This document shows, piece after piece, positions 14,181 through 63,746 of a stretch of DNA of 64,000 nucleotides. The notes beneath the pieces were generated by a model. That model ran no database searches and was not told where the DNA came from. It saw only the letters and a list, made by a program, of their open reading frames with translations. Position 1 is the stretch's first letter. Each line of letters begins with the position of its first letter. The stretch comes from an uncultured Candidatus Saccharibacteria bacterium (lineage in GTDB: Bacteria; Patescibacteriota; Minisyncoccia; Phycocordibacterales; 2-02-FULL-43-11): assembly GCA_964348785.1 (NCBI GenBank), contig CAYGDO010000001.1, forward strand, positions 21,724-85,723. Direction: 5' to 3'. Both the position numbers and the translations under genes were made by a program.

Positions 14181-14212
14181 ATTCAAAATTTTTTATGCTC
14201 TTAACTAAAAAA

Positions 14213-22245: not shown

Positions 22246-22251
22246 GCAGGT

Positions 22252-30145: not shown

Positions 30146-30195
30146 TTAAAATATAAAAAGAAAGTCCCGAGGCCTGCGCGCACCTCGGGACCAAT
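30146..30195 (-). terminator. rho-independent terminator on minus strand (GTCCCGAGG-N10-CCTCGGGAC + T-run)
   Basis: perfect 9-bp stem followed on minus strand by TTTCTTTTTATATTTT. Confidence 0.55.
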
Positions 30196-30399
30196 CAGGA
30201 TGGAACAAGTTCAGCGTCAATGCAAAGACGCCGGGATGAGTGAGCCTTGGATGCTCTAGAGGAGTCTCATCTCTCCTTTTCGGAGGAAGGGCAGATGCCC
30301 GACCAAACGTCGTCTTCGACAAACCTTCCTCCTAGAAACCAGCAACCTCAAAACAACCCATATAAATCATAAACCTAGTAAAATAAAAGTAAAGGGGCG

Positions 30400-30435
30400 G
30401 TCGCATTGCGAACGACCGCCCCCGAACTGCAGACC
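30400..30435 (-). terminator. rho-independent terminator on minus strand (GGGGCGGTCG-loop-CGACCGCCCC + TTTACTTTTATTTT)
   Basis: perfect 10-bp GC stem, T-rich tail on minus strand. Confidence 0.55.
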
Positions 30436-30639
30436 AACCGATCCCCACTTTTCAGCGTGCCAAGAAGTCACGACAAGGGATCGGCTCTGACAGTCATCCT
30501 CCAAGCTGTCCCGTTAAAGACGCCAAGAAGAAAAGACTCCAGAAAAGAGCTGGAAAGTTCGAGCGCAAATTACGGCGAAGAACCGGATAGCTCAAACTGC
30601 TCTCTAAATGAATATGATGAACCTGATTTTAAAAAAGTA

Positions 30640-30675
30640 AAGCACCGCCCCGATTTTATCGGGGCGGTGCTTACA
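30640..30675 (-). terminator. terminator of the 544-aa surface-protein gene
   Basis: GCACCGCCCCGAT-aaa-ATCGGGGCGGTGC followed on minus strand by TTTACTTTTTT. Confidence 0.65.
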
Positions 30676-32440: not shown

Positions 32441-32456
32441 ATCCCAGCGTGGTTAT

Positions 32457-33587
32457 TCACCACCCGAGACGAAAGAAGCGTGAGGGCTCGAGTGCTCTCC
32501 CCACAACCACACCACGGTCGTAGATCGGGACTGTCCCGATATTGACCGGGTACTTGCCCGGCCAAATGGGATAGTCATAGACAGGAGCCCACGGACCCCG
32601 AGCGTCCGTCGCTGAGTACAATCGGGCCTGCTGGCTCCCGGTCGCTTGGAAGTCCATGAAGACTTGCCCCGCCCGAGAAATTTCCAACGTGAACGAAATC
32701 GGTGGCGAATAGCCCACCGGCAGGTCCAATCGGAGTTCCGCGAGGAGCTTTCCGGTAATGGCGCCCCAAACCCGATACCAGAAAACGTACTTGTTACAGG
32801 ACTGAAAGTCCCGTTGAATCTGGTAAAGATCACCAGAATACCTGGCCTCCTTGGCGGTGTAGAAACCGAGGGAATACAACTCATTCACACCCTGATAGTC
32901 AGGACCGGCCCGGATTGACTTGTCGTCACTCGTGCCCTTCCGACCATCGGGTCCGTATTGCACTCCTTGATTGGCGAAGCCGTAATCACCCAACCCGTAA
33001 TTCCAGAAGCTGTCGGTCCAGGGGTTTACTCCCCGAGAACCGTACTCGACTCGCTCGAGATTAACCGGCTCCGGCGATTGACGAATGGCGAGAAGTGCCA
33101 CCACTCGTGTACCCTGTTGAATGCACTCTTCGGATCGCAACTCCTGATTTCTCCAGAATCGAACGTTGCTTCCAGTGGCATCAACGAAGTCGTGCCACGC
33201 CAGTCCAGCGACCGGTGTAAAATCGGTAGGGGTATTCTGAACCGGGCTGGCCCCGCGTCCAGTCTGCAACCAACGCATGGCGTTCAAATTCCATGCATCC
33301 ACCGAGCATTCGGATGCCGGCGAAACGGCAATAGTGATGTCAGCGATGACTCCCGCGGCAAGGTAATTATTGGCAGGAGGGATTCCTTGCTTGGGATACC
33401 AGTCCCAGCTCTTCCAATCCTCCGCCCACGGATCCGTATCCGTGTAGAAGTGGATGGGCGCCGGTGTCCCGCACCCGTCACACCCGATAGTGGCCGGTTG
33501 GGTCACCGCGCCACCAATGGTGGCTTGGCCGAAGAGGTTGAGAACGAAACCGAAGACGAATCCGAGGGTAACGATACTGGTTTTCAT
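32457..33587 (-). CDS. GC-rich secreted hypothetical protein (Trp/Tyr/Gly-rich)
   Basis: 376 aa with N-terminal signal peptide; strongly GC-biased codons unlike neighbours. Confidence 0.5.
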   Translation of the reverse strand: MKTSIVTLGFVFGFVLNLFGQATIGGAVTQPATIGCDGCGTPAPIHFYTDTDPWAEDWKSWDWYPKQGIPPANNYLAAGVIADITIAVSPASECSVDAWNLNAMRWLQTGRGASPVQNTPTDFTPVAGLAWHDFVDATGSNVRFWRNQELRSEECIQQGTRVVALLAIRQSPEPVNLERVEYGSRGVNPWTDSFWNYGLGDYGFANQGVQYGPDGRKGTSDDKSIRAGPDYQGVNELYSLGFYTAKEARYSGDLYQIQRDFQSCNKYVFWYRVWGAITGKLLAELRLDLPVGYSPPISFTLEISRAGQVFMDFQATGSQQARLYSATDARGPWAPVYDYPIWPGKYPVNIGTVPIYDRGVVVGRALEPSRFFRLGW

Positions 33588-34087
33588 GGATTTCTGAGTG
33601 TCGAGGGTTGTTTGTGAAAAAGTTTTTTCGCTTCTTCCCTTATTTTTTTAGAAAAGAGCGAAACTCATCTCTTATTACTATAAAATTGACGAAAAGTCAA
33701 TGATATTGGGAATGAAAAAATGAAATCAAATTATGCTATTTTATTAATAAAATATTTTTACAAATTTACTATTTTTTCACACATACACCATTTTTTCGCT
33801 ATAGTGAAAAAATGGTGTATAGGTATTTGTTGTTTAATTGTTGTTTGAAATTTATTCACCCTAAAAATTTTATGGAAAATATTTTTTAACTATACTTTCT
33901 TTATAAAAATCAAAAAACAAATGCTTTGTAAAATAACTGTTGTTCAGTAATAAAATTGGGGGTCCATCCTATAAACTTTTTTGACATGTAAAATTTAGAA
34001 ACAAATCTAAAAATGTACAAAAGCAAAAGATAGTTTATAAAAAAGTTTTTAGGATAAATAAAAAAGACCCAGCATCTAGGACCCTTC

Positions 34088-34130
34088 AGGGGGATCTTTC
34101 GATGCTGGGTTCGCAAACGTGTGGTTGAGG
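34088..34130 (-). terminator. rho-independent terminator on minus strand
   Basis: ACCCAGCATC-loop-GATGCTGGGT followed on minus strand by CTTTTTTATTT. Confidence 0.55.
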
Positions 34131-34240
34131 CGGCCCGCCCGCTCCGTAGCGGGGATGAGTTATTTTCGGGGCTGATCATCACAGCCCTGAGATCTCGAGT
34201 TCGAGTTGCATGAGGAAGGTCCTCTGCGCGCCGGGGGACT

Positions 34241-34360
34241 TCAGGCGATGATGCCGATGGCGACGCCGATGGCCGTGGACGCGGAATTGACGATGGCGCT
34301 CTTGGTGCCGATGGTGTTCACGGTGATGTGCGCCGGGGGCGCGTGTTCGGTGGGCTTCAT
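34241..34360 (-). CDS. candidate 39-aa GC-rich small hydrophobic peptide (MKPTEHAPPAHITVNTIGTKSAIVNSASTAIGVAIGIIA)
   Basis: GAGGA 8 nt upstream of ATG; terminator about 110 nt downstream; alternative longer ORFs overlap in other frames. Confidence 0.3.
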   Translation of the reverse strand: MKPTEHAPPAHITVNTIGTKSAIVNSASTAIGVAIGIIA

Positions 34361-34511
34361 GGTGTTTGTCCTCGAGCTTGGTCGCGAATCTGCCCAATGC
34401 GGAGTTAGTGCCACACCAGTGACACACCTTTGGCAAAAGCCTTAGGTCGATAACTTGCAAAGAGCTGGGCAACCAAATAAAAATGCTACACCTGCCCCAA
34501 AAACCTGTCAA

Positions 34512-34523
34512 CCCCGTTAGAAG
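34512..34523 (-). repeat. CTTCTAACGGGG motif copy flanking GC-rich island at 34.1-34.5 kb
   Basis: accccgttagaagtaggacacgg. Confidence 0.55.
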
Positions 34524-34569
34524 TAGGACACGGACAAAATGTTTATGTTTCTAAAATTATGATAAAAAA

Positions 34570-35581: not shown

Positions 35582-35616
35582 GAAAATAAAAAAGGCCACC
35601 TGAGAAAGTGGCCCCT
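35582..35616 (-). terminator. rho-independent terminator
   Basis: GGCCAC-ctgagaaa-GTGGCC with T-run on minus strand. Confidence 0.55.
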
Positions 35617-35634
35617 TAAAGAACACATCGAGAC

Positions 35635-37014
35635 TTACGCGTACTGGTCCGGTTTCCCTGGAACAGGATCTACGGACCGATACACTTCGAGTCTCAACCT
35701 ATCAACCCTGAAAATCGGGGCGAGCAGACGAAAGAGTCGTTCGTTTCGAACCGCATGTGATTTCGAACTAGCAGAGGTAAATAGATACTTAGACATATCT
35801 CTGCCAGAAAGAATTGAGGCGACGCCACTCTCCGCCGTAAGCAAGCTGGTCAAGACAATGTAGAAATGCACATCAAGCACCAACCTCTTTCGGGCCGGCA
35901 ACTGACAAGTGCAGTCCGCGTCCAAACCTGCCATTTCAACGAAAGAAGTGATGACATTGTCCACCGCTTCAGAGAGTGGGAATGACAGATTCCCCTCAAA
36001 GAACAATCGCTGGCTGTCCGCTGACAGAAAGCGATGAGTCTCTCCCTTCTCGTCAATCAAGCGATAGAAACGGCTAGGATCAGAGTTCGAGATTTCCTTG
36101 AGCACCCGCCTCAATCGTTCTTCGCCCAATGACCGAAACAAGAACGCCGAAGCCAACTCCACCTGCGGAAACATCACTTTGGTTGCGGCGACGTGGAAAG
36201 CAAACGGGCTCGCCGCCCGCAGGGCAATCCCCGGCAAACCATGATTCAAACTCTCCGGTAAGGTCCTGCTGGACCAGCGTGCAGAACCCGGCCAAAGGTT
36301 CTCATCGTCGGAAATGCGCACCCCAACACAATGGCACACACTGTGACCTTCGTTGTACGCACGTTCCATGAACTCGTGCATGAGAACCTTGCGCCCAGTA
36401 CGCGCCACCTCTTCAGGATTGGCACCGTGCCAAGAGCCAACGTGAGTCGTCCGAATACAACTTGGCGGGAGACCACTTATGTCTTTGTAGCCAGCATCGA
36501 CTACGACAAACAGTTTTTCCTCCTTCCTACGTGAGTCATCACCGTAAGGCCAGATGCAGAGATGATCGGCCCTGTCAGTCCAGTTCCTGCCGTGGAGCAC
36601 CCAAGTACTGATGATATTCCTAGCTAGACTATCCAAACGGCGATCAGTGTATTCCCTCCTCGTTCCCAACTTCCAAATGGCTGGCGAGACATTGGCGTAC
36701 CGACCAACTGAAAGGACCCAGATATCTCCCTCCTGCCTCGCGTCTTTCATCGAGCACGAGCAACTTTCAGGAGCATCCTCAAGAAACAAGCCCTCTTTCC
36801 GACCCAGAACGAGAGCAAGAGGCCTGGTCTCGCCAGTCACTTTAAAAGTCACCTGGCCTGTCCACTCACCGTCACCTGAAGATGAAAAAGAAAGTCCGAC
36901 CTGATCGGTGGAAAAGCCTCCAGCGATTTTTCTGAGGATGACCTCCGCGACCCCGCCCGAGTTAGCCGAGATAACCGACACCAACTCACTACCAGGTTTA
37001 ATTGTCGTTGTCAT
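35635..37014 (-). CDS. GC-rich hypothetical protein (about 459 aa from ATG at 37014)
   Basis: Track ORF extends to 37167 but upstream extension is AT-rich and contains a terminator hairpin (GGGCCC-tcaaacg-GGGGCC+TTTTCTT at about 37090-37120); no family recognised. Confidence 0.5.
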   Translation of the reverse strand: MTTTIKPGSELVSVISANSGGVAEVILRKIAGGFSTDQVGLSFSSSGDGEWTGQVTFKVTGETRPLALVLGRKEGLFLEDAPESCSCSMKDARQEGDIWVLSVGRYANVSPAIWKLGTRREYTDRRLDSLARNIISTWVLHGRNWTDRADHLCIWPYGDDSRRKEEKLFVVVDAGYKDISGLPPSCIRTTHVGSWHGANPEEVARTGRKVLMHEFMERAYNEGHSVCHCVGVRISDDENLWPGSARWSSRTLPESLNHGLPGIALRAASPFAFHVAATKVMFPQVELASAFLFRSLGEERLRRVLKEISNSDPSRFYRLIDEKGETHRFLSADSQRLFFEGNLSFPLSEAVDNVITSFVEMAGLDADCTCQLPARKRLVLDVHFYIVLTSLLTAESGVASILSGRDMSKYLFTSASSKSHAVRNERLFRLLAPIFRVDRLRLEVYRSVDPVPGKPDQYA

Positions 37015-37361
37015 TGCTTGCCTTGTTGTTTTGCCTGTTTTCGTCAAAGAACTTATCGCCCGTCTCCACACGGAGTAGCGATTAAGAAAAGGCCCCCGTT
37101 TGAGGGCCCGTTTCTTCAATTGATTTTTGCAATAAGAGAAACCGACCCTCAAACTTGTGGGGACCAAAAGCTAAAATAAAAGTTTGCAGTTCGGAATTTC
37201 ATAGTTATATATAAATCATACATAATCGTTTTTTTATGTCAAATGTAAAAAATCCACACCCCAAGGTCACACCTCCTATAAAAAACACTGTCAAACTAAG
37301 AGTGATTTTAAGATCTATATATGTAAAAAGTACAAAGTTCGACCTTGTAAGTAATTTGGTT

Positions 37362-46134: not shown

Positions 46135-46833
46135 ATGAACGAACAGACAACCTTCGGTGGACTCAACCTCAACAACCTGGACCGCACGCCGATCTGGTTG
46201 AGAGAAATTATCGGGCACCGCGATTTTGCTCAAGCCCTAGCATGGGCTGAGGCCCAAAAGAACCGGAGCGATTCCTACCACAAATGGGGATGGCGAGTTG
46301 CGCTGCTCGGGATGATTTTGACACTTCTCATCTTAGGGTTCTTTGGCCTAGCACTAAAGCATAAGTTCGAGATTCCCCCGCAAAGCGTGATGACCTTGTT
46401 TTTCTTACCGGTCATCATAATCTCTGTTGGGCTATACCTGCTCTATACATCCAGTGAGCATAAGCGCAAGGCTAACGAAGCCTTGAAGACAGAATTTTTC
46501 AAGATCACTCCGTTCATTGACCTGCTCACAGAGCTAGGGCTCGGACACATTTTGGTGACAGAATCCCACCACGGAGTGGGAAAGGAAGTCGAGATAAAAT
46601 TGATTGAATTCGCAGAGAGAGTCCTCAGTCTGGAAATTGAGTTCTCAAAGATCAGGTCAAGAGGTACCGGAATGGAGGGTTTTACCGATTTAATGCAGTT
46701 TGGTGATGGAATTCGCCAATTCAGGGGACTGTTAAACGGACTATGTGGTCATTTTGTACCCTGGAAGATGCCCTTCCAAATCGGACAGATTTTCAACAAA
46801 GCGGAAAACAGGATCCCCAAACCCGCCGCCTAA
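46135..46833 (+). CDS. membrane protein, hypothetical (moderately GC-rich)
   Basis: 232 aa, 2-3 TM segments, terminator at about 46850-46885. Confidence 0.45.
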   Translation: MNEQTTFGGLNLNNLDRTPIWLREIIGHRDFAQALAWAEAQKNRSDSYHKWGWRVALLGMILTLLILGFFGLALKHKFEIPPQSVMTLFFLPVIIISVGLYLLYTSSEHKRKANEALKTEFFKITPFIDLLTELGLGHILVTESHHGVGKEVEIKLIEFAERVLSLEIEFSKIRSRGTGMEGFTDLMQFGDGIRQFRGLLNGLCGHFVPWKMPFQIGQIFNKAENRIPKPAA

Positions 46834-50186: not shown

Positions 50187-50672
50187 TCAAATCTCACCGA
50201 AAAGTCGGTGGACAGAGATAACCCGTTCATAGTAAAACCTTGCATCTCTAGGCCACCGACGCATCATCTGACATTCTTCAAGGTAGGCCGTCCTAATAAT
50301 AAAAAAGTAGTAGGCTCCCGCGATGAGGAGTGCAAGGGCAGAATGATCGTAAGCAAGAAACACCAAATCAGCGACGATGTACGATGCGTAGGCGGGATGG
50401 GCGACAAACCGAAACGGTCCGTCCACTTTTAGCCTGAGGGCCCCCTGAACCATTTGTCGTGATAGGGAAAACAACACCCAACCGACAAACAAGATCCAAA
50501 GGACGATACCGACCTTGAGGAAAACGATGTGTTCCTGGGGCGCCTTCGCCCACAGAAAACGGTACGAAAACCAGTACCGGACGACCGCCAAGGCCATCAT
50601 CAGATACCAGTTGAAGTTGGAACGAAAAGACAAAGAGCTTGTATTCATGACTCGCGAGAAATTAACACTCAA
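50187..50672 (-). CDS. isoprenylcysteine carboxyl methyltransferase (ICMT/PEMT)-family membrane methyltransferase
   Basis: 161 aa; GPFRFVAHPAYASYIV motif. Confidence 0.6.
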   Translation of the reverse strand: MSVNFSRVMNTSSLSFRSNFNWYLMMALAVVRYWFSYRFLWAKAPQEHIVFLKVGIVLWILFVGWVLFSLSRQMVQGALRLKVDGPFRFVAHPAYASYIVADLVFLAYDHSALALLIAGAYYFFIIRTAYLEECQMMRRWPRDARFYYERVISVHRLFGEI

Positions 50673-50743
50673 TTATTGATATGTCAAACATTTATACCCG
50701 GTCTTGAATAATCAAAAATTTTAGAATAAACTATCCCCTACTT

Positions 50744-53379: not shown

Positions 53380-53438
53380 AATTATGATTTTATCTTGTAA
53401 ATATAAATTAAATAAATTTCTTTAAATTCTATCACCTG

Positions 53439-53450
53439 CTTCTAACGGGA
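53439..53450 (+). repeat. CTTCTAACGGGA motif copy (upstream of GC-rich histidine phosphatase)
   Basis: same motif at 54395-54407 (+), 63738-63746 (+, partial), 54295-54307 (-), 34512-34523 (-), degenerate 61642-61653. Confidence 0.6.
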
Positions 53451-53594
53451 CAAGTCAAAAAATCTAATAATTTAGACCTTAAATTTAACATAATTTTAGA
53501 CCTTTTCTGAATTTGACTATTTACCACAAAAATGTTATTGTCCTTTTTGGATTCTTTTCCAACAACAGGCAAACCTCAACCTCAATCCTGAATA

Positions 53595-54236
53595 ATGAAC
53601 ACCACACCCAAAATCTGGGAATTGGTCAGTGTCCTTATCCTCGCCCGGCACGGCAAAGCCGTCGCCGCCGAAGGTCGCCCAGACGCCGAACGCAAGCTCA
53701 ACGAACTCGGGATCGCCCAGGCCAACGCCCTCGGCTTCTCCGTTCAAAAGCTCGAGATCGACATCGTTCTGTCATCCCCGCTCAAGCGGGTGGTGAGCAC
53801 CATGCGCACCGCGACCAACGACACTATCCCGATCCATCCGGTCGCCGAACTCACCTGCTCGGATGATCCGATTGACCCGATCCAGATCATGTGGGGCAAG
53901 CTCGGCAATGTCCCCATCTCTCGATACTTCGCTGAGGCCGCCGGCGAATATCTCAAGGTCTGGGGGCAAACAGCCCTCGGTGCCATCATCCGCGAACTCC
54001 AAAATGGCGGACACGACCAGAAGGTTCTCGTCGGCGGACATGCCGTTCTCCAGAATGCCCTCTTATGGGCAATCTCCCAGTCAGTCTCCGAGGACTGCTG
54101 GGCGGCGGCAGGAATGGACGAGGTCAATGAAATAGCCTGCCAAAACCTTCTCGGAGAAGGCGAGGCCTTCGTCCTGAGATTCCCATCACATGAGGCCGGT
54201 GTCACCACATGTGAACACCTCCGCCCCATGGCGTAA
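53595..54236 (+). CDS. histidine phosphatase superfamily protein (SixA/PGM-like), GC-rich
   Basis: 213 aa; LILARHGKA (RHG), SSPLKRVVSTM, VGGHA motifs; TTGACT-N17-TATTGT promoter-like upstream. Confidence 0.6.
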   Translation: MNTTPKIWELVSVLILARHGKAVAAEGRPDAERKLNELGIAQANALGFSVQKLEIDIVLSSPLKRVVSTMRTATNDTIPIHPVAELTCSDDPIDPIQIMWGKLGNVPISRYFAEAAGEYLKVWGQTALGAIIRELQNGGHDQKVLVGGHAVLQNALLWAISQSVSEDCWAAAGMDEVNEIACQNLLGEGEAFVLRFPSHEAGVTTCEHLRPMA

Positions 54237-54265
54237 CTCCGCTCACCCAGTTCTTTCTCTCAAGT

Positions 54266-54292
54266 CCCGATCCGCATCGGGGCTTTTTTATT
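54266..54292 (+). terminator. rho-independent terminator
   Basis: CCCGAT-ccgc-ATCGGGG + CTTTTTTATTT. Confidence 0.6.
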
Positions 54293-54294
54293 TA

Positions 54295-54307
54295 CCCCGT
54301 TAGAAGC
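54295..54307 (-). repeat. CTTCTAACGGGG motif copy (inverted) just after the histidine-phosphatase terminator
   Basis: ccccgttagaagc. Confidence 0.6.
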
Positions 54308-54394
54308 AACGTACACCAAATTTAAACCAAGAGACATTCTTAAAATTAATTTTAATCTAAAACCTACCAGAAAATGTTTGACCGGCCGTGTCCC

Positions 54395-54407
54395 GCTTCT
54401 AACGGGG
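54395..54407 (+). repeat. GCTTCTAACGGGG motif copy at the downstream boundary of the swivel-domain array
   Basis: gtgtcccgcttctaacggggt; close match to reverse complement of 34512-34535. Confidence 0.6.
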
Positions 54408-54440
54408 TTTATCCAAAAAACTTTATTACTAAAAAAACAG

Positions 54441-55727
54441 TTAACTACTTTTTATAATTTTTACTACACCCTTCTCCGCATCAACCTCTACCAAATCACC
54501 ATCTTTAAGAACTTTCGTGGCAATTTTGGTACCAATGATACAAGGCTTTTTCATTTCTCTAGCGACAATCGCAGCGTGAGAAGTTATCCCTCCTTCATCC
54601 GTGATAAAAGCTGAGGCTTTATTCATACCAATAATATACGAGGGCGCAGTAGTTGGAGCAACCAAAATATCTCCTTCTTTTACTTTTTCAATTTCATAAG
54701 CAGTCATTACAATTTTCACCGTCCCCCTTAAAACACCCTTATACGCAATTGCACCTTTTAACTCTTTAACATCGGCATAATCAGAAATAGCTAAAATCGG
54801 GCCTTCAAACAAAACTTGCTCCTCACCCATACCTACACAAGATACATTTTTATAAAACTTTAATTCACCAGAAATTAAACTATCGAAATCATACCACTTC
54901 AAATCTTCGAATTTAATTTTATATAAACTAGCGACCTCCTTTAAAATAGGCCTTAATCTATACATAAATTCCCAAAGGACATCCGTCCTAAATGTCCTGA
55001 AATAGACTAATTCTTGAGTGGCGACCACTAGATCTGATAATTCATCTGGTACATTCGGTCGATTAAATTTTTCTGTTATCCCATCTTTTTTAAGCCTTTG
55101 CCTTTCGGATGATAATTCCTCAATACTGTAAGGTTCGCCAAAGCCATCCCTTATTTTTATCCAGCCAAATTCTTGTTGAATTTTCTCCAAATCATCATCC
55201 CCCAAAAGAGCTTCTAAAAAATATGAATGCTTATTTTTCTTAACAGGATAACTAACATCACCAATAAATTTATTTATATCGCCTTGATAATATTTTGGTA
55301 TCTCTAATTTTAATTTATTTAAGTATAAATGTTCGAAAGCGTGTGTTAGCCAGGTATAAGCTATATTTTCACGAATCAATTTTCTAATTTCCATTAATTT
55401 ATCAGGGACCCGATCAGATGAATCTAAAATAGATTTTACCCTTTTTTTACCACTCTCATAAAATTTTTCACAATTACTTACAACCTCAAACAAATCAATT
55501 TTATTTTTGATTAATAAATCAACCTGTATATCCAAGACCTTGAGTGATTTATAAAAAGCACCGTTTTGAAATAAAAAAGCTTTTTGTTCCCAGTTTAAAC
55601 CAATTGTTTTAAAAGTCTGATAGCCATTTGCCATAAGAGAAAGCACAAAAGCTCCAAATGGACGATCCGCCCAATGTTCCCAATCATTGTAATCTAAAAC
55701 TTTCTTTTTTATTTCCTCTTTTGTCAT
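54441..55727 (-). CDS. PEP-utilising phosphohistidine swivel-domain protein, paralogue A (no ATP-grasp domain)
   Basis: 428 aa; C-terminus [46 protein letters not shown]. Confidence 0.7.
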   Translation of the reverse strand: MTKEEIKKKVLDYNDWEHWADRPFGAFVLSLMANGYQTFKTIGLNWEQKAFLFQNGAFYKSLKVLDIQVDLLIKNKIDLFEVVSNCEKFYESGKKRVKSILDSSDRVPDKLMEIRKLIRENIAYTWLTHAFEHLYLNKLKLEIPKYYQGDINKFIGDVSYPVKKNKHSYFLEALLGDDDLEKIQQEFGWIKIRDGFGEPYSIEELSSERQRLKKDGITEKFNRPNVPDELSDLVVATQELVYFRTFRTDVLWEFMYRLRPILKEVASLYKIKFEDLKWYDFDSLISGELKFYKNVSCVGMGEEQVLFEGPILAISDYADVKELKGAIAYKGVLRGTVKIVMTAYEIEKVKEGDILVAPTTAPSYIIGMNKASAFITDEGGITSHAAIVAREMKKPCIIGTKIATKVLKDGDLVEVDAEKGVVKIIKSS

Positions 55728-57175
55728 TTATTTAAAATCCTAACAACTCCACTGTTTGCGTCAACCTCCACCAAATCCCCGTCTTTAAGAACTTTCGTAG
55801 CAATTTTAGTGCCAATGATACAGGGTTTATGCATTTCGCGAGCCATGATGGCAGCATGGCAAGTAATCCCCCCTTCATCAGTAACAAATGCTACAGCTTT
55901 TTCTAAAGCAGGCATAAATGATGGAATAGTCATTGGAGCAACAACCACATCTCCTTTTTGGACTTTAACATTATCTGCGTCAGTTTTAAGAATTTTTACA
56001 ACCCCAGTTGCAAATCCTTTGTACGCAATTTTTCCCTTTAGTTCCTTTTGGTCATCATTTTGTCTTTTCAAAAAAGAATGGTTTTCGATAAATTTTTCAA
56101 CCTCACCCCCTTCCAAAACTACCGGTTCACCTAATCCGTAATAAATCAAAAAATTCTTTTTTCTTTCTTCAATATTTTTTTTATAATCTAATTTTCCTCG
56201 TAAAGCCAAAACTATTTCAGGAACACATAAATTGAGCATATTGTTGTAAGAAACATTAAGCACAAAGGCCACCTTAGACAGCAAAGGTCTAATGTGATAA
56301 CCCGATTCATGAAAGAAATCAGCGCGTTGATTCCTGACAAAAATTATTTCTCTAATTTTATCAACTATTTTTTTATCATCTACACTAAAATTTTTTGTTA
56401 AAACTTTAATTTTTTCTTCTTTTTCGAGTCGTTTATTCAATCTTTTTTCTAATTCTTTTTTTGCTTCTTCTTTAGAAATATTGTTAAGTCTATTCAATAC
56501 ATCCTCAGTCCTCCACGGCTCACCCAAGAAAAATCTCAAAGAAATCCAACCATATTTTTTAGCATGTTTACTGGCCAGTTCTTCTTTATTTAAAACATCA
56601 CTCGAAGCCAAAATTAAAAAATCTTTCTGTTCTTCTTCAACAACAGTATCTTTATTTGATACTGAAATGGCACTTAGTAATTCTTCAAACTCCTTTTCAT
56701 CTTTTGAATATTTTTTAACAAGACTCTTTGCAATATCAGTGGTCGGACCTTCAAATTGAGTTATGTTGTAAAAAACCGTGTACTTTATTTCTGTATCAAA
56801 AAACTCTTCCATCAACCTTGCTAATTCCTCATGATCTTCAATAAACAATGATTTTGCCGATAATTCCTTACATCTTTCCTGTAACTCATTGCCGAAAACC
56901 ATACATTTTTTAACCAACTCACTGACATAATCTAAGCCCTTAGAAGAAAATTTAAATTTTATTTCTTCTTCCTGCTTTTTTAAATCATTAATAAATTGAT
57001 AGAAAAAATAATTAACTTGTAACCATCTAACCAAAGTGTCTAAATCAAAAATTTCCTTTGTGGCTCTTTTATCCAACATTCCCCCAATTAAAAGATGGGA
57101 AATCATATAAGGCTCGATTCTCTCTCCAAAATAAACAATGTCCTCCTTTTTTAAATTTTCCAACTCTTTTGTCAT
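55724..57175 (-). CDS. PEP-utilising swivel-domain protein, paralogue B
   Basis: 483 aa; C-terminus [46 protein letters not shown]; 4-nt overlap with A. Confidence 0.7.
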   Translation of the reverse strand: MTKELENLKKEDIVYFGERIEPYMISHLLIGGMLDKRATKEIFDLDTLVRWLQVNYFFYQFINDLKKQEEEIKFKFSSKGLDYVSELVKKCMVFGNELQERCKELSAKSLFIEDHEELARLMEEFFDTEIKYTVFYNITQFEGPTTDIAKSLVKKYSKDEKEFEELLSAISVSNKDTVVEEEQKDFLILASSDVLNKEELASKHAKKYGWISLRFFLGEPWRTEDVLNRLNNISKEEAKKELEKRLNKRLEKEEKIKVLTKNFSVDDKKIVDKIREIIFVRNQRADFFHESGYHIRPLLSKVAFVLNVSYNNMLNLCVPEIVLALRGKLDYKKNIEERKKNFLIYYGLGEPVVLEGGEVEKFIENHSFLKRQNDDQKELKGKIAYKGFATGVVKILKTDADNVKVQKGDVVVAPMTIPSFMPALEKAVAFVTDEGGITCHAAIMAREMHKPCIIGTKIATKVLKDGDLVEVDANSGVVRILNK

Positions 57176-58632
57176 TTATTTAAAATCCTAACAACTCCCT
57201 TCTCCGCATCAACTTCTACCAAATCGCCGTCTTTAAAAACGTCAGTGGCGTTATTTATACCTACAACACAAGGAATCCCTAATTCACGAGAAACAACGGA
57301 CACATGAGCAGTAATGCCTCCATCTTCAGCCACCACGCCAGAAGCCTGGATCAAAACTGGCATAAAATCCGGACTCGTATTGGCCGCTATTAAAATATCA
57401 CCCTTATTAAACTTCTTAAAATCTTCCCCAGACAATACAACCTTAGCTATTCCTTTTGCAAATCCTTTTGAGGCCACTCTGCCTTTAAATTCTTTCTTAC
57501 CAATATCCTTATTTATCAAAAACCTTTCTTCAAACTTTTTAGCATCTTTTCCTAAAAGAATATTCAATTTGTTAGGAACGGCAATAACAATATTATATTT
57601 CGATCTTTCTTTGACCAAACTTTCGTCAGGCATCTGTCCACCTAGCGCAAATTCGATTATCTCCCTAGGATGTAAATCTTTTATAAAACCTATCGAGACA
57701 TCCTTCCTCCTTGCCAATTCCCCAAACAAAGGTTCGGCATAATACTCCAGCTTGTTTATACAAGATTTGTAATAATCTTTAAGATATGTAGCGAAAGATG
57801 CAATTCTTGCCAATTCTTTACCCTTTTCATCAAGTGATTTAACTAAATTTTCATAAGTTTTTTTATCATCAACAATTTTTTTCAAAAAATTATTTCTCTT
57901 TTGCGTAGGATTATCTTTTAATAAACCATCCAGCGTATTTTTGTAATCATTATATTCTTTAGGCTTTTCATCAAAATAACCCATAACGCCCCAAGCATAT
58001 TTACCAACAATTTCCGCAATTTTTTCTTTAATAGATTGAGAATTTATATCTTCTTTTTTTTCAAAAATAGAGGATGCTAGGTTGAGCAAATCTAATTCTT
58101 CAGATACAGATAACGTTGGCTTAATGGGTTGGGCTAAATTTATAATTATCTGATCAACATCAGATTGATTTAAAAAATGTTCCCTAATCTTTTTAACAAC
58201 AACTCTATCCAAAATTCTTAAAGTGCCCGCCGTCACCATAAATTCCCAATAAAACGTAAAATAACTATCGAAGACTTCAGCCAAATCATCATCTGTTAAT
58301 TTATTTAAATCCTTCAAAAATATTTTCTTTACGCCTTGTTCCATCTTTTCGGTAAGATATTTTTCCATTTCTTCCAATAACCCTTTATCTTTCCAAAAAC
58401 GATCAAAAACTTTTTGAAAATCTTCGTCGCTTAAAACAAAAATCCATTTTACATAGTGTTCGTTCATTAAAGAAATAATAAAACCTGTATGGGGCCAAAT
58501 TGTATGTATCTGTGAATATTGTGTAGTTATTAAATAGCATGGGTAAAAATAAGAAACACGGCCACCTTCTGAGTAAAGCTGTTTATTTTCAAAAATATTC
58601 CAATCAATTTTTTCATCTCCTTCAAAATTCAT
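57172..58632 (-). CDS. PEP-utilising swivel-domain protein, paralogue C
   Basis: 486 aa; C-terminus EDGGITAHVSVVSRELGIPCVVGINNATDVFKDGDLVEVDAEKGVV. Confidence 0.7.
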   Translation of the reverse strand: MNFEGDEKIDWNIFENKQLYSEGGRVSYFYPCYLITTQYSQIHTIWPHTGFIISLMNEHYVKWIFVLSDEDFQKVFDRFWKDKGLLEEMEKYLTEKMEQGVKKIFLKDLNKLTDDDLAEVFDSYFTFYWEFMVTAGTLRILDRVVVKKIREHFLNQSDVDQIIINLAQPIKPTLSVSEELDLLNLASSIFEKKEDINSQSIKEKIAEIVGKYAWGVMGYFDEKPKEYNDYKNTLDGLLKDNPTQKRNNFLKKIVDDKKTYENLVKSLDEKGKELARIASFATYLKDYYKSCINKLEYYAEPLFGELARRKDVSIGFIKDLHPREIIEFALGGQMPDESLVKERSKYNIVIAVPNKLNILLGKDAKKFEERFLINKDIGKKEFKGRVASKGFAKGIAKVVLSGEDFKKFNKGDILIAANTSPDFMPVLIQASGVVAEDGGITAHVSVVSRELGIPCVVGINNATDVFKDGDLVEVDAEKGVVRILNK

Positions 58633-58645
58633 AAAATTTACTTAA

Positions 58646-60040
58646 TTACAATGAATTGTTTTTAAGAATTGTGACCACACCCCTCTCCGCATCAACTTCC
58701 ACCACGTCACCGTCCTTAAGAACTTTAGTGGCGATTTTGGTGCCAATGATACATGGCTTTTTCATTTCCCGTGCAACAATAGCGGCATGAGAACTTATGC
58801 CCCCTTCATCAGTCACAAATGCCCCGGCAATTTTCATAAAAGGTAAAAATTCTGGTCTGGTCATGCTTGTAACTAAAATCTCTCCTTCTTCCATTTTTTT
58901 AGCATCTTCAGAGTGTGGATTCAAAATAACTCTCACTCTTCCTTTAACTAATCCCTTACAAGCCACAGAGCCTTTCAAATCAATATTTTTAGACTCTTGA
59001 GTATTTAAAACCTGTTCAACCATTTTCCAACATTTTTGACCTTCTTCAGAAAAATAATAATTATACTCTCCGTCTTCTGTCATGTGAACAAAAAAGCCTT
59101 CCTCTATTCTCTTTTTCAAATCATTTTCAGCTACAGTAGCAAAAAATAATTCCTCTACTCTATCAGGAATAAGACCGTTTAATAATTTTAAATCAATTTT
59201 CTGTCTTTTAGCTACCTCCCTTAAAATTTTCAACATTCCAAACAAACCAACGTAATTCAGTCTTTTTCTTTCATCACGCCATTTGGTTAATAAAACAAAT
59301 ACATCATATGGATTTTTATCAAGACCATATTTCTTTAAAATTAACTTCTTGTCAGGAGCTTCGATAATTTTTGATTCATCTAATTTTTGTAATTCAAGAT
59401 CAATAAAACCATCATCCACTTCAACAAAAGAAGAATAGTCTATTCCGTACCAGAAAAAAAGTTTCTTTAATTCATCTCTTGTTATTATCCCATTCTTTAA
59501 GTCAGACAATTTCTTATCCCATAAAGTAATAAATGATGGCTCATCTGGAATAAGAAGACTTTGTTTTTCTTCAATACCAAATTTATAGTTATTAGAAATC
59601 TTTTCTATCTCTTCGTGATCAATCCCTATATCAAAAGAATCTATAAAAATTCCACATGCCCACATTTCAAGATCCTTCTTATAAATTTCGTTATATCTTT
59701 TTATAAGATCTTCAATGTCTATAGAAGATAAATCAGTTTTGTATATTTCATACGATAGTAGTGTTAACTCTTTATCTAAAATATTCCAATCTTTTAGCCA
59801 ATCATCTACCCCTCCATCCTCAAATTTATTTAAAAAAGATTCTGATACTTTTCTCCATTGATCTTCATAAAAAGCAGCCCATAGATAATTATTTTTATAA
59901 AACAAAAAACCCTCACCCCAACTAAAAGGGAGATACTTCTGCATCATCTTACCTGCCGTCATGTACGGTAAAATAACTTGAAAGGCCCCGCATTTTCCTT
60001 CTTGTTTATAAAGTTTTCTATTGGGGTCTATTTTTATCAT
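58646..60040 (-). CDS. PEP-utilising swivel-domain protein, paralogue D
   Basis: 464 aa; C-terminus [46 protein letters not shown]. Confidence 0.7.
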   Translation of the reverse strand: MIKIDPNRKLYKQEGKCGAFQVILPYMTAGKMMQKYLPFSWGEGFLFYKNNYLWAAFYEDQWRKVSESFLNKFEDGGVDDWLKDWNILDKELTLLSYEIYKTDLSSIDIEDLIKRYNEIYKKDLEMWACGIFIDSFDIGIDHEEIEKISNNYKFGIEEKQSLLIPDEPSFITLWDKKLSDLKNGIITRDELKKLFFWYGIDYSSFVEVDDGFIDLELQKLDESKIIEAPDKKLILKKYGLDKNPYDVFVLLTKWRDERKRLNYVGLFGMLKILREVAKRQKIDLKLLNGLIPDRVEELFFATVAENDLKKRIEEGFFVHMTEDGEYNYYFSEEGQKCWKMVEQVLNTQESKNIDLKGSVACKGLVKGRVRVILNPHSEDAKKMEEGEILVTSMTRPEFLPFMKIAGAFVTDEGGISSHAAIVAREMKKPCIIGTKIATKVLKDGDVVEVDAERGVVTILKNNSL

Positions 60041-60073
60041 TTTTCATTTAGCAGACAAAGTCTTAATCAGTCT

Positions 60074-61573
60074 TTAATCTTCTTCGTATCTTTTAATAAT
60101 CTTTACAACACCTTCATTTACATTAACTTCTACCAAATCCCCATCTTTCAAAACTTTCGTGGCAATTTTCGTGCCGATAATGCAGGGAATTCCCAACTCT
60201 CTTGAAATAATCGCTGCGTGGCAAGCAATACCGCCTTCGTTTGTAATAATCGCTTTTGCTTTTCTCATTAATGGCACGAACTCAATTCTGGTCATTGATG
60301 TAACCAGAATCTCTCCGTCTTCAAAAATATCCTTGGAGGGATCAAGTACTACTCTGACTTTTCCTGAGAAATTACTTACACCTCCTCTACTTGCAACTTG
60401 TCCTTTTACAAAACCCTCGAATTTAAAAGCTGTCGCTACTGAAAAAAGCTCCTTGGCTTCGCCATCATAGAATATTTTCGCATTTTGTCCTTTTTCCCAT
60501 ACCATAAAAACTCCCGCTTTTCTTCTTCTTATCTCTTCCACATTTAATTTATATTCACTTTCTAAACATTTACCGAACTCATCAAAAGTATAAACCGCTA
60601 AATCCTCATAAGGAATATTGGATACTTTAGCAGTATGATCCATAGTCATTGCCAAGTAATAAAAAAATCTCATCATTCCGATTTTTCTTAAATCAATCCA
60701 CTGAATAACAAGTTTCGCAAAAGCTAAATCTCTTTTATCTATTTCGGTTAGCTCTATTGTACCCAGAATTTTTTTACGATTTTCATGTAAGACATCAAAA
60801 TTTTGTCTATTTTTTTCTATTTCCAATTCAATGCCCTCTTTTTTATTCTTAGAAATTTCAACGTAAACTTCTTTTAGAATTTTTTCCGGAGTAGTTTCTT
60901 CAGCCTTATAAAAATCACTTCGGAACCAAAAATACTTATCAATGTAACTTTTAATATTTTCTTTAAGAATTTTTCCAGAGGATACTTCAATGCAAATCCT
61001 CAAGAAATCCTCTCTTTCAAGATTGAAAACGGTTGGTTCTTCCGGATGTGCCAAAGTATTAAATATCTCATCTGCCTTATTAATTTCTAAATTATGACGT
61101 TTGGCAAAATGAGGAACTATTTCCTTATTTATAATAGCCCCCTTATCCTCCCAAAGAGAACAATAATGAAACCACTCTCCTGAAAGAATCGAAAATTTTT
61201 TATAAAAATCAAAAATTTTCTCTTTTGAATAAGTCGCGCCATTTTTAAAATATTCTTCCCAAGCTTTTTCTATCTCCTTTTCCAAAAAAATCTGACGTTC
61301 TATCATTTTATCTGCGCTCTTTGGATCACGTAAATAATCGTCGTATACTTTTTTAGCAATATCCTCAATTATCTTCTTAGCATTAAATTGATGGAACGAA
61401 CCCATCTTATCAAAAGAGAAAAAAGCGAAACCTGGACTGTATAGAACACCATGAAGCGAATCAGATTCTGTGTAAGACTTGAAAGCCATATCAAGCGCCA
61501 CCAAAGAGACGCCGGCAATAGCATTATCTAACTCATTATTTTTGAGATAGTTTATTATTTCGCCTTTTGTCAT
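60074..61573 (-). CDS. PEP-utilising swivel-domain protein, paralogue E
   Basis: 499 aa; C-terminus [46 protein letters not shown]. Confidence 0.7.
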   Translation of the reverse strand: MTKGEIINYLKNNELDNAIAGVSLVALDMAFKSYTESDSLHGVLYSPGFAFFSFDKMGSFHQFNAKKIIEDIAKKVYDDYLRDPKSADKMIERQIFLEKEIEKAWEEYFKNGATYSKEKIFDFYKKFSILSGEWFHYCSLWEDKGAIINKEIVPHFAKRHNLEINKADEIFNTLAHPEEPTVFNLEREDFLRICIEVSSGKILKENIKSYIDKYFWFRSDFYKAEETTPEKILKEVYVEISKNKKEGIELEIEKNRQNFDVLHENRKKILGTIELTEIDKRDLAFAKLVIQWIDLRKIGMMRFFYYLAMTMDHTAKVSNIPYEDLAVYTFDEFGKCLESEYKLNVEEIRRRKAGVFMVWEKGQNAKIFYDGEAKELFSVATAFKFEGFVKGQVASRGGVSNFSGKVRVVLDPSKDIFEDGEILVTSMTRIEFVPLMRKAKAIITNEGGIACHAAIISRELGIPCIIGTKIATKVLKDGDLVEVNVNEGVVKIIKRYEED

Positions 61574-61670
61574 AAGTTATTTTTTAGAATTGTGACTACC
61601 CCCTCTCCGCATCCATCCCAGTAGCAAAAATCAGAATTTCGCTACGGGACAAGCCTCCACCAATATATCA

Positions 61671-63722
61671 TTACTTACCCACTCTTTTAATTATTTTGAC
61701 AATGCCCTCGTTTGCATTAACTTCGACCTCATCACCGTCTTTCAAAACCTTCGTAGCAATTTTGGTGCCGATAATGCAAGGAATTCCTAATTCTCTAGAA
61801 ACTATTGCTGCATGAGATATTATTCCTCCCTCATCAGTTATGATTGCCCCAGCTTTTTTACAAGCCAATATCATTTCAGGGCCAGTAGAGCCCGCCACCA
61901 ACACTTCACCCTCCTTCATCATTTCTATTTCCGTCTTAAAATCAGTATCTGCGCTAAACATTATCTTTTTAACTTTCCCTTTATAAATTCCTTTATGTGC
62001 GACATTTCCCTTAAAACTCTCTAAATCTTTATCAACTTCTAAAAACTGCTTATAAAGAATTTCTGCTTCTTCACCCACGACATCTTCACCATTAGAAAAC
62101 AAGCCACGAACAATTGCGCCAGATCTTTTCGAAACTGAGATTTTGCGTCCACGTAACATTTCCACCAGTTCAGTGTATTTATAGTCCTCCACAGACAATT
62201 CAAGTGTAAGGCGTCTGGAAATTTCATCTAAAAAGGGCTTGAGAATATTAGGATCATACATTGTAAAATTAAGAAGTTTACGATATTCAAATTTTAATTC
62301 ACCAGCTTGTTTCAATTTTTTCTCTAAAGCAGGGTCTTTTTGCAACTTTGCAGCCACCAAATCTAAACTGTGATATTCCAAAGGAAAATAATTACGCCAC
62401 ATCTCTATAGACAAGATGGCTGATTTTTCCAAGAACTCTGCCAGTTCTTCATTCGAAAGCTTTTCCGTTTTTATCGTCAGTAATTCACTTATACTTTTTT
62501 CAAATTTCACCATCTTCTGTCTTAAGTCTGTCGTAAACTCTTCATATCTCTTAATAAATAAATTTAAACCTTCCTCCCCGAGTCTCTCGTGTTCAACCTT
62601 ACTAACAAAAAGACTGTTCGAACGCTCTTTGATAAAGAGGATAAAATCCTTATCTGCATAACCCGAATAGAAATGAGCGTCAGAAAAAATATACGGCACA
62701 CCAAACGTCCAAAGAAAATCATAATCTTTTACACTAGGAAAATTTTTAGGCTTTTCTTCTAAAATATCAATTTTCTTAGACAAAGTCGTAATTGGTCTCG
62801 ACTGAACAATATAGAATTTACCAGCCTCGTATGCCCATTCAATATCGCAAGGAAAACCATAGTGCTTTTCTATGCCGAGAATAATTTCCGACAATTCCAA
62901 AATTTGCTTTTCGCTTAATTTTTGCTTTTCGCCCTCAACGGCGGAAATATCTCTCCATTCATTTCCACCACCTACTTTCCTGAATAAGCCACGTTCCTGA
63001 ACGGAAATGTTTGAGTCAATAATTCTTCTTGGTTCTTTTTCTACAACATAAGAATCTGGCGTAATCTGTCCAGACACAATCGCTTCGCCAAGACCAAACC
63101 CGGCTTCAATAATCATCTGATTATAATCCTCTGTTACAGGGTGAACAGAAAAAGCGATTCCAGACACTTCGGATTCAACCATTTTTTGCACCACCACTGC
63201 CACAGAAATTTTTGTTTTATGTAAATCTTTTTCAAAACGATAAAAAATAGCACGAGGAGTAAACAAAGACGCCCAACACTTCCTCACATTTTTCAAAAGA
63301 TCAGACTCTTCTGTATTCAAAAAACTATCAAGTTGCCCTGCCCAAGCAGCAGAACTAGAATCTTCTGCCGTAGCAGAAGACCGAACAGCGACAAACCTAG
63401 CGCCTAACGCCTTAAAACCTTTCCTAATTTCCTCTCTAATATCTTCAGGCATTTCTTTTGCCAAAATCAAAGATTGAATTTGTTCTGATGCGTTTTCAAC
63501 TGTATGCATTTCAGCATGTTTTACCTTGTGAAGGATTGAATCTATTTCAATATTTAAATCTGTTTCTTCGCAAAATCTTTCAAAAGCACCAGCAAGAACA
63601 ACAAAACCCGGTGGAACCGGAATCCCCGCATTGGTCATTTCTCCAAGCGACGCACCTTTTCCTCCCGCAATTTCTGCATCATTTTTCGAAAGCTCTTTGA
63701 ATTCCTTGGTGAATTTTTGCAT
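61671..63722 (-). CDS. PEP synthase/rifampicin-phosphotransferase-like enzyme: N-terminal PEP/pyruvate-binding ATP-grasp domain (PPDK_N-like) + middle domain + C-terminal swivel domain, paralogue F
   Basis: 683 aa; N-terminus EIAGGKGASLGEMTNAGIPVPPGFVV... (PPDK_N), C-terminus [46 protein letters not shown]. Confidence 0.75.
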   Translation of the reverse strand: MQKFTKEFKELSKNDAEIAGGKGASLGEMTNAGIPVPPGFVVLAGAFERFCEETDLNIEIDSILHKVKHAEMHTVENASEQIQSLILAKEMPEDIREEIRKGFKALGARFVAVRSSATAEDSSSAAWAGQLDSFLNTEESDLLKNVRKCWASLFTPRAIFYRFEKDLHKTKISVAVVVQKMVESEVSGIAFSVHPVTEDYNQMIIEAGFGLGEAIVSGQITPDSYVVEKEPRRIIDSNISVQERGLFRKVGGGNEWRDISAVEGEKQKLSEKQILELSEIILGIEKHYGFPCDIEWAYEAGKFYIVQSRPITTLSKKIDILEEKPKNFPSVKDYDFLWTFGVPYIFSDAHFYSGYADKDFILFIKERSNSLFVSKVEHERLGEEGLNLFIKRYEEFTTDLRQKMVKFEKSISELLTIKTEKLSNEELAEFLEKSAILSIEMWRNYFPLEYHSLDLVAAKLQKDPALEKKLKQAGELKFEYRKLLNFTMYDPNILKPFLDEISRRLTLELSVEDYKYTELVEMLRGRKISVSKRSGAIVRGLFSNGEDVVGEEAEILYKQFLEVDKDLESFKGNVAHKGIYKGKVKKIMFSADTDFKTEIEMMKEGEVLVAGSTGPEMILACKKAGAIITDEGGIISHAAIVSRELGIPCIIGTKIATKVLKDGDEVEVNANEGIVKIIKRVGK

Positions 63723-63737
63723 ATAAACATTATATTA

Positions 63738-63746
63738 TCTAACGGG
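63738..63746 (+). repeat. TCTAACGGG motif copy in the promoter region at the upstream boundary of the swivel-domain array
   Basis: ttatctaacgggataaat. Confidence 0.45.

Follow-up and report, generated by a model that had tools for sequence, protein, structure and literature searches.

What is a G+C-rich histidine phosphatase gene doing opposite an array of genes for phosphohistidine-carrying swivel proteins? The question is raised by a 64-kb stretch (the window) of a 222-kb contig, CAYGDO010000001.1, assembled from an uncultured Candidatus Saccharibacteria bacterium; the window has a GC content of ~32%, and the motif copy numbers and mobile-gene scans given below cover this window. The phosphatase gene (53595-54236, + strand) encodes a protein of 213 amino acids (aa) and converges, as the preliminary description of this stretch had reported, on paralogue A (54441-55727, −), a 428-aa PEP-utilizers (swivel) protein. 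Paralogue A is the last of five paralogues in the partner array (54441-63722, −), which begins with a head gene (61671-63722, −) joining a PPDK_N ATP-grasp to a swivel domain, each of the paralogues combining an unknown N-terminal domain with a swivel phosphohistidine (phospho-His) domain. The analysis points to an orphan, array-linked subfamily of branch-1 histidine phosphatases, and the explanation that we favor overall, with a probability of about 0.5, is that the phosphatase is a dedicated antagonist of the array, with the phospho-His of the swivel domain as its preferred target, and that the short motif flanking the gene belongs to a separate repeat.

An independent Logan assembly from another sequencing run (L002) has the same junctions and the same motif copies. 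Pfam matches among the window proteins include ParB, RelA/SpoT, TopA, DnaX, Dus, and seryl-tRNA synthetase, and relatives of the swivel genes are labeled by their sources as Paceibacterota, Parcubacteria, Taylorbacteria, and similar, which identifies the window as part of a Patescibacteria chromosome. One more swivel (PEP-utilizers) paralogue, the sixth (24866-26347, −; 493 aa), stands alone, far from the main array.

Linkage of the phosphatase to swivel arrays

Relatives of the phosphatase were collected by a word-indexed search of 5.8 billion proteins, which returned 16, and by full HMMER, which returned 34 cluster representatives at E <= 1e-30; a scan of GTDB species-representative genomes with the family alignment found no relative, and a JGI scan added only one further short locus. 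At each of the 11 distinct loci, the phosphatase relative adjoins or lies within an array of PPDK_N and PEP-utilizers (swivel) genes, and at each it is encoded on the strand opposite to the array, an outcome with a chance of 0.5^11 if the loci are independent. The linkage is kept despite quite different flanks and over a wide span of divergence. Taking the window protein as the reference, identity is 60% at locus L014, 56% at L003, 45% at L019, 40-41% at L008, L011, L015, and L005, 38% at L024, 35% at L025, and 26% at L026, where the array linkage still holds; the range over the distinct loci is also given as 26-63%. The subfamily was found only in Patescibacteria-type contigs.

Two arrays lacking a histidine phosphatase were examined (L022 and L023). 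The first carries two LMW-PTP family genes on the strand opposite to the array, one within it and one at its end (L022:4588-4986 and L022:12941-13432, both −; E = 4e-13 and 2.4e-5), and the true start of the gene at L022:4588-4986 lies further upstream, which restores a CLGNSDRS P-loop. The second carries a gene of 171 aa (L023:7749-8264, −), likewise opposite to the array, which has no detectable family and to which no phosphatase family could be assigned. All three genes are rich in GC and in C at the third codon position (C3), and they share the promoter, leader, terminator, and composition signature of the phosphatase cassette. Because an unrelated phosphatase family occupies the same slot in L022, this arrangement is strong evidence that the slot stands for a phosphatase serving the array. 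A functional tie between the phosphatase and the array is thus highly probable on comparative grounds, and of the coupling and the coincidence between which the preliminary description had left the choice open, it is coupling that co-occurrence across genomes supports, through the 11 loci and the LMW-PTPs alike.

A larger, weakly His_Phos_1-like protein of 267-321 aa recurs among the loci (L003:8816-9781, L011:9808-10701, L005:10775-11653, and L008:213-1016), usually on the array strand and AT-rich like the array. At L026:4440-7109, the swivel array is broken by two PIN/DUF433 toxin-antitoxin pairs and short PPDK_N fragments, which suggests that swivel arrays are prone to rearrangement. A limited literature search returned nothing specific on swivel arrays or linked phosphatases in Patescibacteria and no description of antisense, compositionally anomalous, recombining phosphatase cassettes in dikinase arrays; surveys of resistance genes in the candidate phyla radiation do mention rph-like genes (PMC8651080).

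Family assignment, active site, and predicted fold

The RHG...H motifs on which the initial assignment to the histidine phosphatase superfamily was based are borne out by the Pfam profile His_Phos_1 (PF00300), which matches with 47.9 bits against a cut-off of 21.7 (E = 1.7e-12) and covers the N-terminal half only, and by conservation of the catalytic residues. The protein has the full set R18-H19-G20, R65, E85, and H149 on an alpha/beta fold; R18, H19, R65, and H149 are invariant and E85 nearly so in an alignment of 13 sequences, and in an alignment of 34 sequences, R65 remains invariant with R18, H19, and H149 nearly invariant. The protein is accordingly predicted to be a catalytically complete branch-1 histidine phosphatase, and it is almost certainly active. 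The AlphaFold2 model is confident (pLDDT 94.3) and includes a helical cap region of ~60 residues, with extra helices at about residues 95-135; this insertion has family-specific residues that are invariant in the 13-sequence alignment (C88, M99, L103, G104, Y111, and K121).

Whether the enzyme is SixA-like or resembles phosphoglycerate mutase (PGM) and CobC had been posed as a question to check. Profile and structure comparison place it in neither group. The SixA equivalog TIGR00249 scores 27.7 bits against a cut-off of 74.5, and the compact SixA architecture of ~155-170 aa without a cap is not that of a 213-aa protein of which only 140-149 residues align with SixA structures. The metabolic equivalogs are missed as well: cobC with 27.3 bits against 162.9, dPGM_arch with 19.3 against 225, and PRK01112 with 13.9 against 320, leaving weak NCBIfam matches to cobC, PspA, and dPGM (E = 1e-6 to 1e-3). 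The top Foldseek matches of the model are CobC and PhoE. As judged from these comparisons, the protein represents an orphan subfamily that cannot be assigned firmly to SixA or to the metabolic enzymes and is no closer to SixA than to PhoE/CobC.

A second His_Phos_1 gene in the window (18006-18548, −; 180 aa, E = 2e-29) is AT-rich, lies in an operon with NUDIX and ASCH genes, scores far better on the cobC/PGM models than the array-linked phosphatase, and appears to be the conventional histidine phosphatase of the genome. PADLOC returned no anti-phage defence match for the phosphatase, the swivel proteins, or the GC-rich open reading frames (ORFs), and a known defence system was set aside on this ground.

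The phosphatase gene as a transcription unit

The preliminary description had credited the gene with its own promoter-like sequence and terminator, and both were located. The promoter scan places a sigma-70 type promoter at 53513-53541 (+), consisting of TTGACT, a 17-nucleotide (nt) spacer, and the extended −10 element TGtTATTGT, and the terminator scan places an intrinsic terminator at 54262-54293 (+), a G+C-rich hairpin with a 10-bp stem followed by a T-run. The promoter core TTGAC...AAAAATG is invariant among six orthologous loci (aligned columns TTGAC and AAAAATG..A), the same promoter type precedes distant relatives and the LMW-PTP analogues, and equivalent hairpin terminators lie 3' of the gene at all orthologous loci. 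Between promoter and start codon, a leader of ~50 nt can be read that is rich in C and A and lacks a Shine-Dalgarno sequence (53542-53594, +); it holds a small 5' hairpin, TTGGA-ttctt-TCCAA, at 53547-53562 and is ~85% conserved relative to L014. Neither the leader nor the repeat described below matched Rfam, even at E <= 1, so that a riboswitch or other known RNA element was ruled out for both. Taken together, the extended −10 promoter, the leader without a Shine-Dalgarno sequence, and the hairpin terminator are predicted to make the gene a self-contained transcription unit.

Translation signals differ between the compositional classes of the window. Most AT-rich genes (for example, those at 3042, 6065, 28578-29618, 30682-32316, and 61671-63722) have no Shine-Dalgarno sequence and a TATAAT-like box only 6-12 nt before the ATG, a spacing that suggests leaderless or near-leaderless mRNAs, whereas the GC-rich genes have C/A-rich leaders of 50-140 nt.

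The arrays resemble split small-molecule dikinases

The head gene matches phosphoenolpyruvate (PEP) synthase (E = 1e-97) and rifampin phosphotransferase (RPH; E = 1e-76) via its ATP-grasp domain. By sequence, paralogue A matches solved structures via the swivel domain only, and its structure model resembles RPH, which makes the arrays look like split small-molecule dikinases. HpeH likewise matches via the swivel only; it is the substrate-binding and swivel subunit of two-component small-molecule dikinases, in which a separate ATP-grasp subunit charges the swivel histidine (PMC12167813). The PPDK_N protein is separate in L003, L005, and L008 and fused to a swivel domain in the head gene of the window. 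Each array has 3-9 swivel paralogues, with 33-38% identity remaining among their diverged substrate-binding domains, and several arrays also contain HAD and alpha/beta hydrolases. The arrays are best interpreted as sets of HpeH-like carrier/substrate subunits that share one ATP-grasp.

Role of the phosphatase

As a dedicated antagonist, the phosphatase would remove the phosphoryl groups that the array installs. Its preferred target would be the phospho-histidine of the swivel domain, and since this domain is the element conserved in all paralogues, one phosphatase could serve them all; that the target is this histidine rather than the products of the array is a tentative proposal, held at somewhat less than even odds. 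The placement of a self-contained unit on the opposite strand, convergent on the array, suggests that the phosphatase is expressed independently of the kinases and would let the cell express the two inversely. SixA offers a precedent, as it dephosphorylates NPr (PMC7948535, PMC6282199) and Ndk (PMC12934123). Several observations weigh against this assignment. Neither the sequence profile nor the fold is nearer to SixA than to small-molecule phosphatases, and the enzyme has a ~60-residue helical cap as in PhoE/CobC together with the conserved Glu (E85) typical of the metabolic branch. Histidine phosphatases and LMW-PTPs both hydrolyse aryl phosphates and phosphomonoesters well, and for this reason the LMW-PTPs in the same slot fit a product phosphatase equally. 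If a catalytic phospho-His intermediate were hydrolysed, the dikinase would be reduced to an ATPase, a costly outcome for such cells. In addition, paralogue A has >6000 relatives against the 16 or 34 of the phosphatase, so the phosphatase appears to be a rare accessory and not the core of the array system.

The closest competitor is a product phosphatase that hydrolyses the phosphomonoester products of the dikinase paralogues and leaves the swivel histidine untouched, reversing or recycling the modification in the way that a resistance kinase may be paired with a reactivating phosphatase. We regard it as possible, with somewhat lower odds than the swivel target. The array proteins are RPH/HpeH-like, and the known products of such small-molecule dikinases are aryl or alcohol phosphates (PMC12167813); the LMW-PTPs in the L022 slot are classical aryl-phosphate hydrolases, the hydrolases found in several arrays point the same way, and the cap domain and conserved Glu would fit. 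Such an enzyme, however, would have to accept the products of all 3-9 paralogues, whose substrate domains are as diverged as described above, while the invariant cap residues suggest one conserved ligand. Far less credible is an ordinary metabolic phosphatase or mutase of PGM, CobC, or phosphoserine phosphatase type that neighbors the array by accident: the weak cobC/PspA/dPGM matches and the top Foldseek matches to CobC and PhoE are what could be said for it, against curated cut-offs missed widely (27 bits versus 163 for cobC, 19 versus 225 for dPGM), a canonical AT-rich His_Phos_1 gene of that type already present at 18006-18548, a conserved array linkage, and a family restricted to array contexts.

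We retain the dedicated array antagonist as the leading explanation. Swivel-paralogue arrays are very common in Patescibacteria, and a phosphatase dedicated to them would make them accessible to experiment, with a kinase/phosphatase module that could be reconstituted from purified PPDK_N protein, swivel paralogue, and phosphatase. If the swivel histidine is indeed the target, phospho-His control of the SixA type would be extended to the catalytic intermediates of dikinases.

A probable dispersed repeat beside the gene

Exact copies of the flanking motif CTTCTAACGGG occur at 53439-53449 (+), 54296-54306 (−), 54396-54406 (+), and 34513-34523 (−), that is, four matches in the window against 0.56 expected, a number reached in 0 of 100 shuffles. 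The three positions first described around the gene were recovered within one base, and the copy at 34513-34523 is new. The 9-mer core TCTAACGGG occurs five times against 0.36 expected. In their full form, copy A (GCTTCTAACGGGA, 53438-53450, +) lies inside a 74-nt insertion, copies B (54295-54307, −) and C (54395-54407, +) are both arms of one palindrome, and copy D (CCGTGTCCTACTTCTAACGGGG, 34512-34524, −) directly abuts a TTGACA −35 box. The fifth core copy (63738-63746, +) lies just upstream of the −10 box of the head gene and could, taken alone, be a chance 9-mer; five against 0.36 expected is not chance. All motif copies are intergenic and beside GC-rich genes, and the −35 box TTGACA is directly abutted by 3 of the 7 full copies in the window and L017, a low-GC metagenome-assembled genome (MAG) labeled Oligoflexia.

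The preliminary description had the gene enclosed by an inverted pair of the motif. The pair is real, with 25-nt arms at 53437-53461 and 54284-54308 that are 84% complementary, and the span from A to B is 860 nt, gene included; as part of the unit it did not hold up, CTTCTAACGGG being absent from all orthologous loci of the phosphatase gene. Two outcomes had been named at the outset as together counting against the initial proposal, a firm PGM/CobC classification and a motif missing from orthologous loci; the first was not found, and the second was. The comparison with L014, which shares the M10 peptidase, a 73-aa gene, and paralogue A with the window at 64-82% identity, is the most direct: promoter, leader, gene, and terminator all align, while a 74-nt lineage-specific insertion holding copy A in the divergent intergenic region (53384-53458, +) is missing from L014 although both of its flanks align, and downstream the window has ~137 extra nt holding copies B and C.

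Copies B and C face outward at the ends of a palindromic element of ~114 nt (54294-54407, without strand; weak symmetry extends to 54284-54418), with 24-nt arms and an 87-nt spacer, which folds as a 14-bp terminal stem and an inner stem (z = −2.8). The element is homologous to L017:3063-3184 (71% over ~124 nt), where the inverted pair has a 91-nt spacer and the repeat lies at an unrelated locus adjoining EF-Tu, accompanied by a solo copy. Copy D has 22 of 24 nt in common with copy C and is 86% identical over 49 nt to L017:3140-3188. A scan of GTDB species genomes for a 22-nt version of the motif gave two matches, one in L017 and one in Chloroflexota; the Chloroflexota match lies inside sigma-70 coding sequence (IGRVPLLTG) and was rejected as coincidence, and the 22-nt core is identical in two different MAGs. 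Two full elements are flanked by TTTA and TTTGA, which are short for target-site duplications and only suggestive. No transposase, integrase, or RAYT family was found among the window ORFs of at least 100 aa that were scanned. Several intergenic copies, inverted doublets forming hairpins, and presence or absence between relatives are features of REP/REPIN and MITE repeats, and we read CTTCTAACGGG as belonging to a lineage-specific, dispersed REPIN/MITE-like repeat, a ~115-nt palindrome with solo half-copies. A repeat unrelated to the function of the phosphatase, and not a boundary of its unit, is the probable identity of the motif. In L017, GC-rich small genes (1768-2238 and 3384-3770) lie beside the repeat copies in a low-GC genome. 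A tRNA-fragment or att origin was also considered, given that CCCG-CTTCTAA-CGGG resembles the anticodon arm of Arg(UCU), and was dismissed on finding no tRNA near any copy with ARAGORN and Rfam.

The reading as a repeat has to contend with the distribution of the motif, which could act as an operator at this locus. The 10-kb region of array and phosphatase is bracketed by four of the five core copies, one of which lies in the head-gene promoter. A regulator binding CTTCTAACGGG(G) would then control the phosphatase gene jointly with the promoter of the head gene and one or more other GC-rich units, in keeping with the full copies abutting TTGACA and with the 22-nt core shared by two MAGs. We consider this unlikely, given that the motif is missing from the closest orthologous locus, L014, where the promoter is conserved, that 62 nt separate copy A from the −35 box downstream of it, that copies B and C lie beyond the terminator between convergent genes and face no gene, and that the homology of the B-C pair to an element at an unrelated site extends over the entire palindrome of ~120 nt, as is typical of a dispersed repeat. 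More improbable still is that the A/B pair marks the ends of a transposon- or integron-like mobile cassette that delivered the GC-rich gene, its adjacency to the array being accidental. The inverted arms do fit the promoter-gene-terminator unit exactly, the gene departs strongly in composition from its surroundings and is a recombination mosaic (see below), and the unit is as autonomous as a phage moron; yet L014 has the same gene in the same place but no motif, the array linkage holds at 11 of 11 loci with quite different flanks, synonymous divergence (dS) from L014 is like that of the neighbors, and no integrase or transposase gene was found among the scanned window ORFs. An integron attC site (57-141 nt, 5'-RYYYAAC...GTTRRRY-3') was specifically rejected, as the B-C element reads 5'-GTTAGAAG...CTTCTAAC-3', the reverse of the attC topology, with no integrase match.

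GC-richness and recombination mosaic

The marked GC-richness of the gene relative to its neighbors, also part of the preliminary description, is fully upheld by a GC content of 0.595 against 0.29 and 0.34 in the 2-kb flanks. GC at third codon positions (GC3) is 0.72 against 0.22-0.31 in neighboring genes, half of the codons end in C (C3 0.50), and CTC accounts for 16 of 22 Leu codons where the neighbors use TTA. Across the 11 loci, the phosphatase gene has a GC content of 0.53-0.64 and a C3 of 0.38-0.50 on backgrounds from 0.33 to 0.56, the exception being one of two tandem copies in L025 (0.49 GC, C3 0.23); the LMW-PTP genes and the 171-aa analogue have a similar signature. Ordinary translational selection was excluded as its cause by the EF-Tu/ribosomal-protein genes, with a C3 of 0.05-0.15 in L017 and 0.17-0.28 in L005 against 0.38-0.50 for the phosphatase, and a conserved antisense gene by long antisense ORFs that lie in differing frames across orthologues.

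Simple recent horizontal gene transfer does not explain the anomaly either, which is present at all 11 loci, with promoter and leader conserved in L014 and a dS of 1.04 for the phosphatase gene against 1.16-2.57 for its neighbors. As a rough estimate, a simple two-rate model with an equilibrium GC3 of 0.25 would have GC3 fall below ~0.4 over the distance between the window and L014. The gene is, moreover, mosaic in structure. Over its first 45 codons the DNA identity to L014 is 82-91%, over its last 45 that to L003 is 71-78%, and in other segments identity is 50-60%. In a fragment, P0005, the middle is window-like (83%) and the C-terminus resembles that of L014 (74%); the fragment probably shares a 3950-bp JGI contig with a 99%-identical copy of paralogue A. 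This intragenic mosaicism indicates that the cassette recombines between lineages, and horizontal transfer among Patescibacteria is documented (PMC12455944). The comparison thus points to a GC- and C3-rich composition conserved in the cassettes together with intragenic recombination, not to a recent one-off transfer.

What keeps the cassettes GC-rich may be selection, biased gene conversion, or repeated overwriting from a pool richer in GC, and the gene poses a population-genetic question as to which of the three applies. A broader and rather speculative proposal is that Patescibacteria hold a shared, recombining pool of autonomous antagonist cassettes resembling morons (so far SixA-like and LMW-PTP), placed antisense in arrays, with a GC-rich, C-ending composition that is actively maintained despite the AT bias of the host genome; the cause could then be biased gene conversion driven by recombination or selection on the nucleotide sequence, for example, for sense/antisense kinase-phosphatase control. 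If true, very small genomes would contain a gene-class-specific compositional regime tied to phospho-His control of uncharacterised dikinases. Since the anomaly persists in every orthologue, calls of recent horizontal transfer that are based on GC content can be wrong in these genomes.

Other GC-rich units in the window

The compositional phenomenon is broader than the phosphatase gene, as some ten more GC-rich islands occur in the window. Eight of them (12480-13260, 13370-14190, 19100-20550, 21650-22250, 32450-33620, 35600-37170, 46135-46833, and 50200-50700) have a GC content of 48-64%; several have their own TTGACA promoter, long leader, and hairpin terminator, and their ORFs are mostly without a Pfam match. 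The genome is a compositional mosaic. Two tandem paralogous GC-rich genes (12542-13159, +, and 13377-14114, +; C3 0.44) have Pro-rich N-termini, shared motifs such as RL(D/A)AIF.G..TP...LFEP, and nearly identical promoters and terminators, and they are on the strand opposite to a neighboring HAD gene (11721-12350). The GC-rich unit at 34060-34480 (−), whose TTGACA promoter is abutted by copy D, has a 39-aa ORF (34360-34241, MKPTEHAPPAHITVNTIGTKSAIVNSASTAIGVAIGIIA), a ~170-nt 3' region, and a strong terminator, and could encode a small hydrophobic peptide or an RNA. Upstream of dnaX, ~900 nt at 29750-30650 have a GC content of 43-51% without an ORF of at least 100 aa and without an Rfam match even at relaxed thresholds; this region may be an undescribed structured RNA.

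Comparison with known systems

HpeHI, CreHI, PpsAB, and RPH resemble the array in combining a PPDK_N ATP-grasp (HpeI-like) with helical substrate-binding/swivel His proteins (HpeH-like). The array differs in placing 3-9 paralogous carriers on one ATP-grasp, and the papers found on these systems do not mention a dedicated phosphatase. SixA, whose targets are phospho-His carriers, among them NPr, which a PEP-utilizer enzyme charges (PMC7948535, PMC6282199), has the same fold and the same Arg-His...Arg...His core as the phosphatase. The phosphatase is ~55 residues longer, with a helical cap and a conserved Glu like the metabolic branch, falls short of TIGR00249, and has a catalytic swivel domain as its proposed target in place of the HPt or HPr-type carrier of SixA. 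From PhoE, CobC, and phosphoserine phosphatase types, it is set apart by an identity of only 14-23%, its family-specific cap residues, and its exclusive array linkage. The LMW-PTP genes of L022 share its slot, its opposite strand, its promoter, leader, and terminator, and its GC-/C3-rich composition, and differ in an unrelated fold and Cys nucleophile chemistry, which makes them analogues and not homologues.

Like REP/REPIN and MITE elements, the motif occurs as solo copies and as a ~115-nt inverted doublet hairpin, is intergenic, and is present or absent between relatives; unlike them, it has been seen in only five to seven copies, several of which abut −35 boxes, and no RAYT or transposase gene was found in the window. 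Phage morons are autonomous promoter-gene-terminator units of atypical composition, and the phosphatase unit likewise is self-contained, unlike its surroundings in composition, and situated between resident genes. Unlike a moron, it is chromosomal and not prophage-borne, keeps its position across lineages, and is predicted to be functionally linked to its neighbors.

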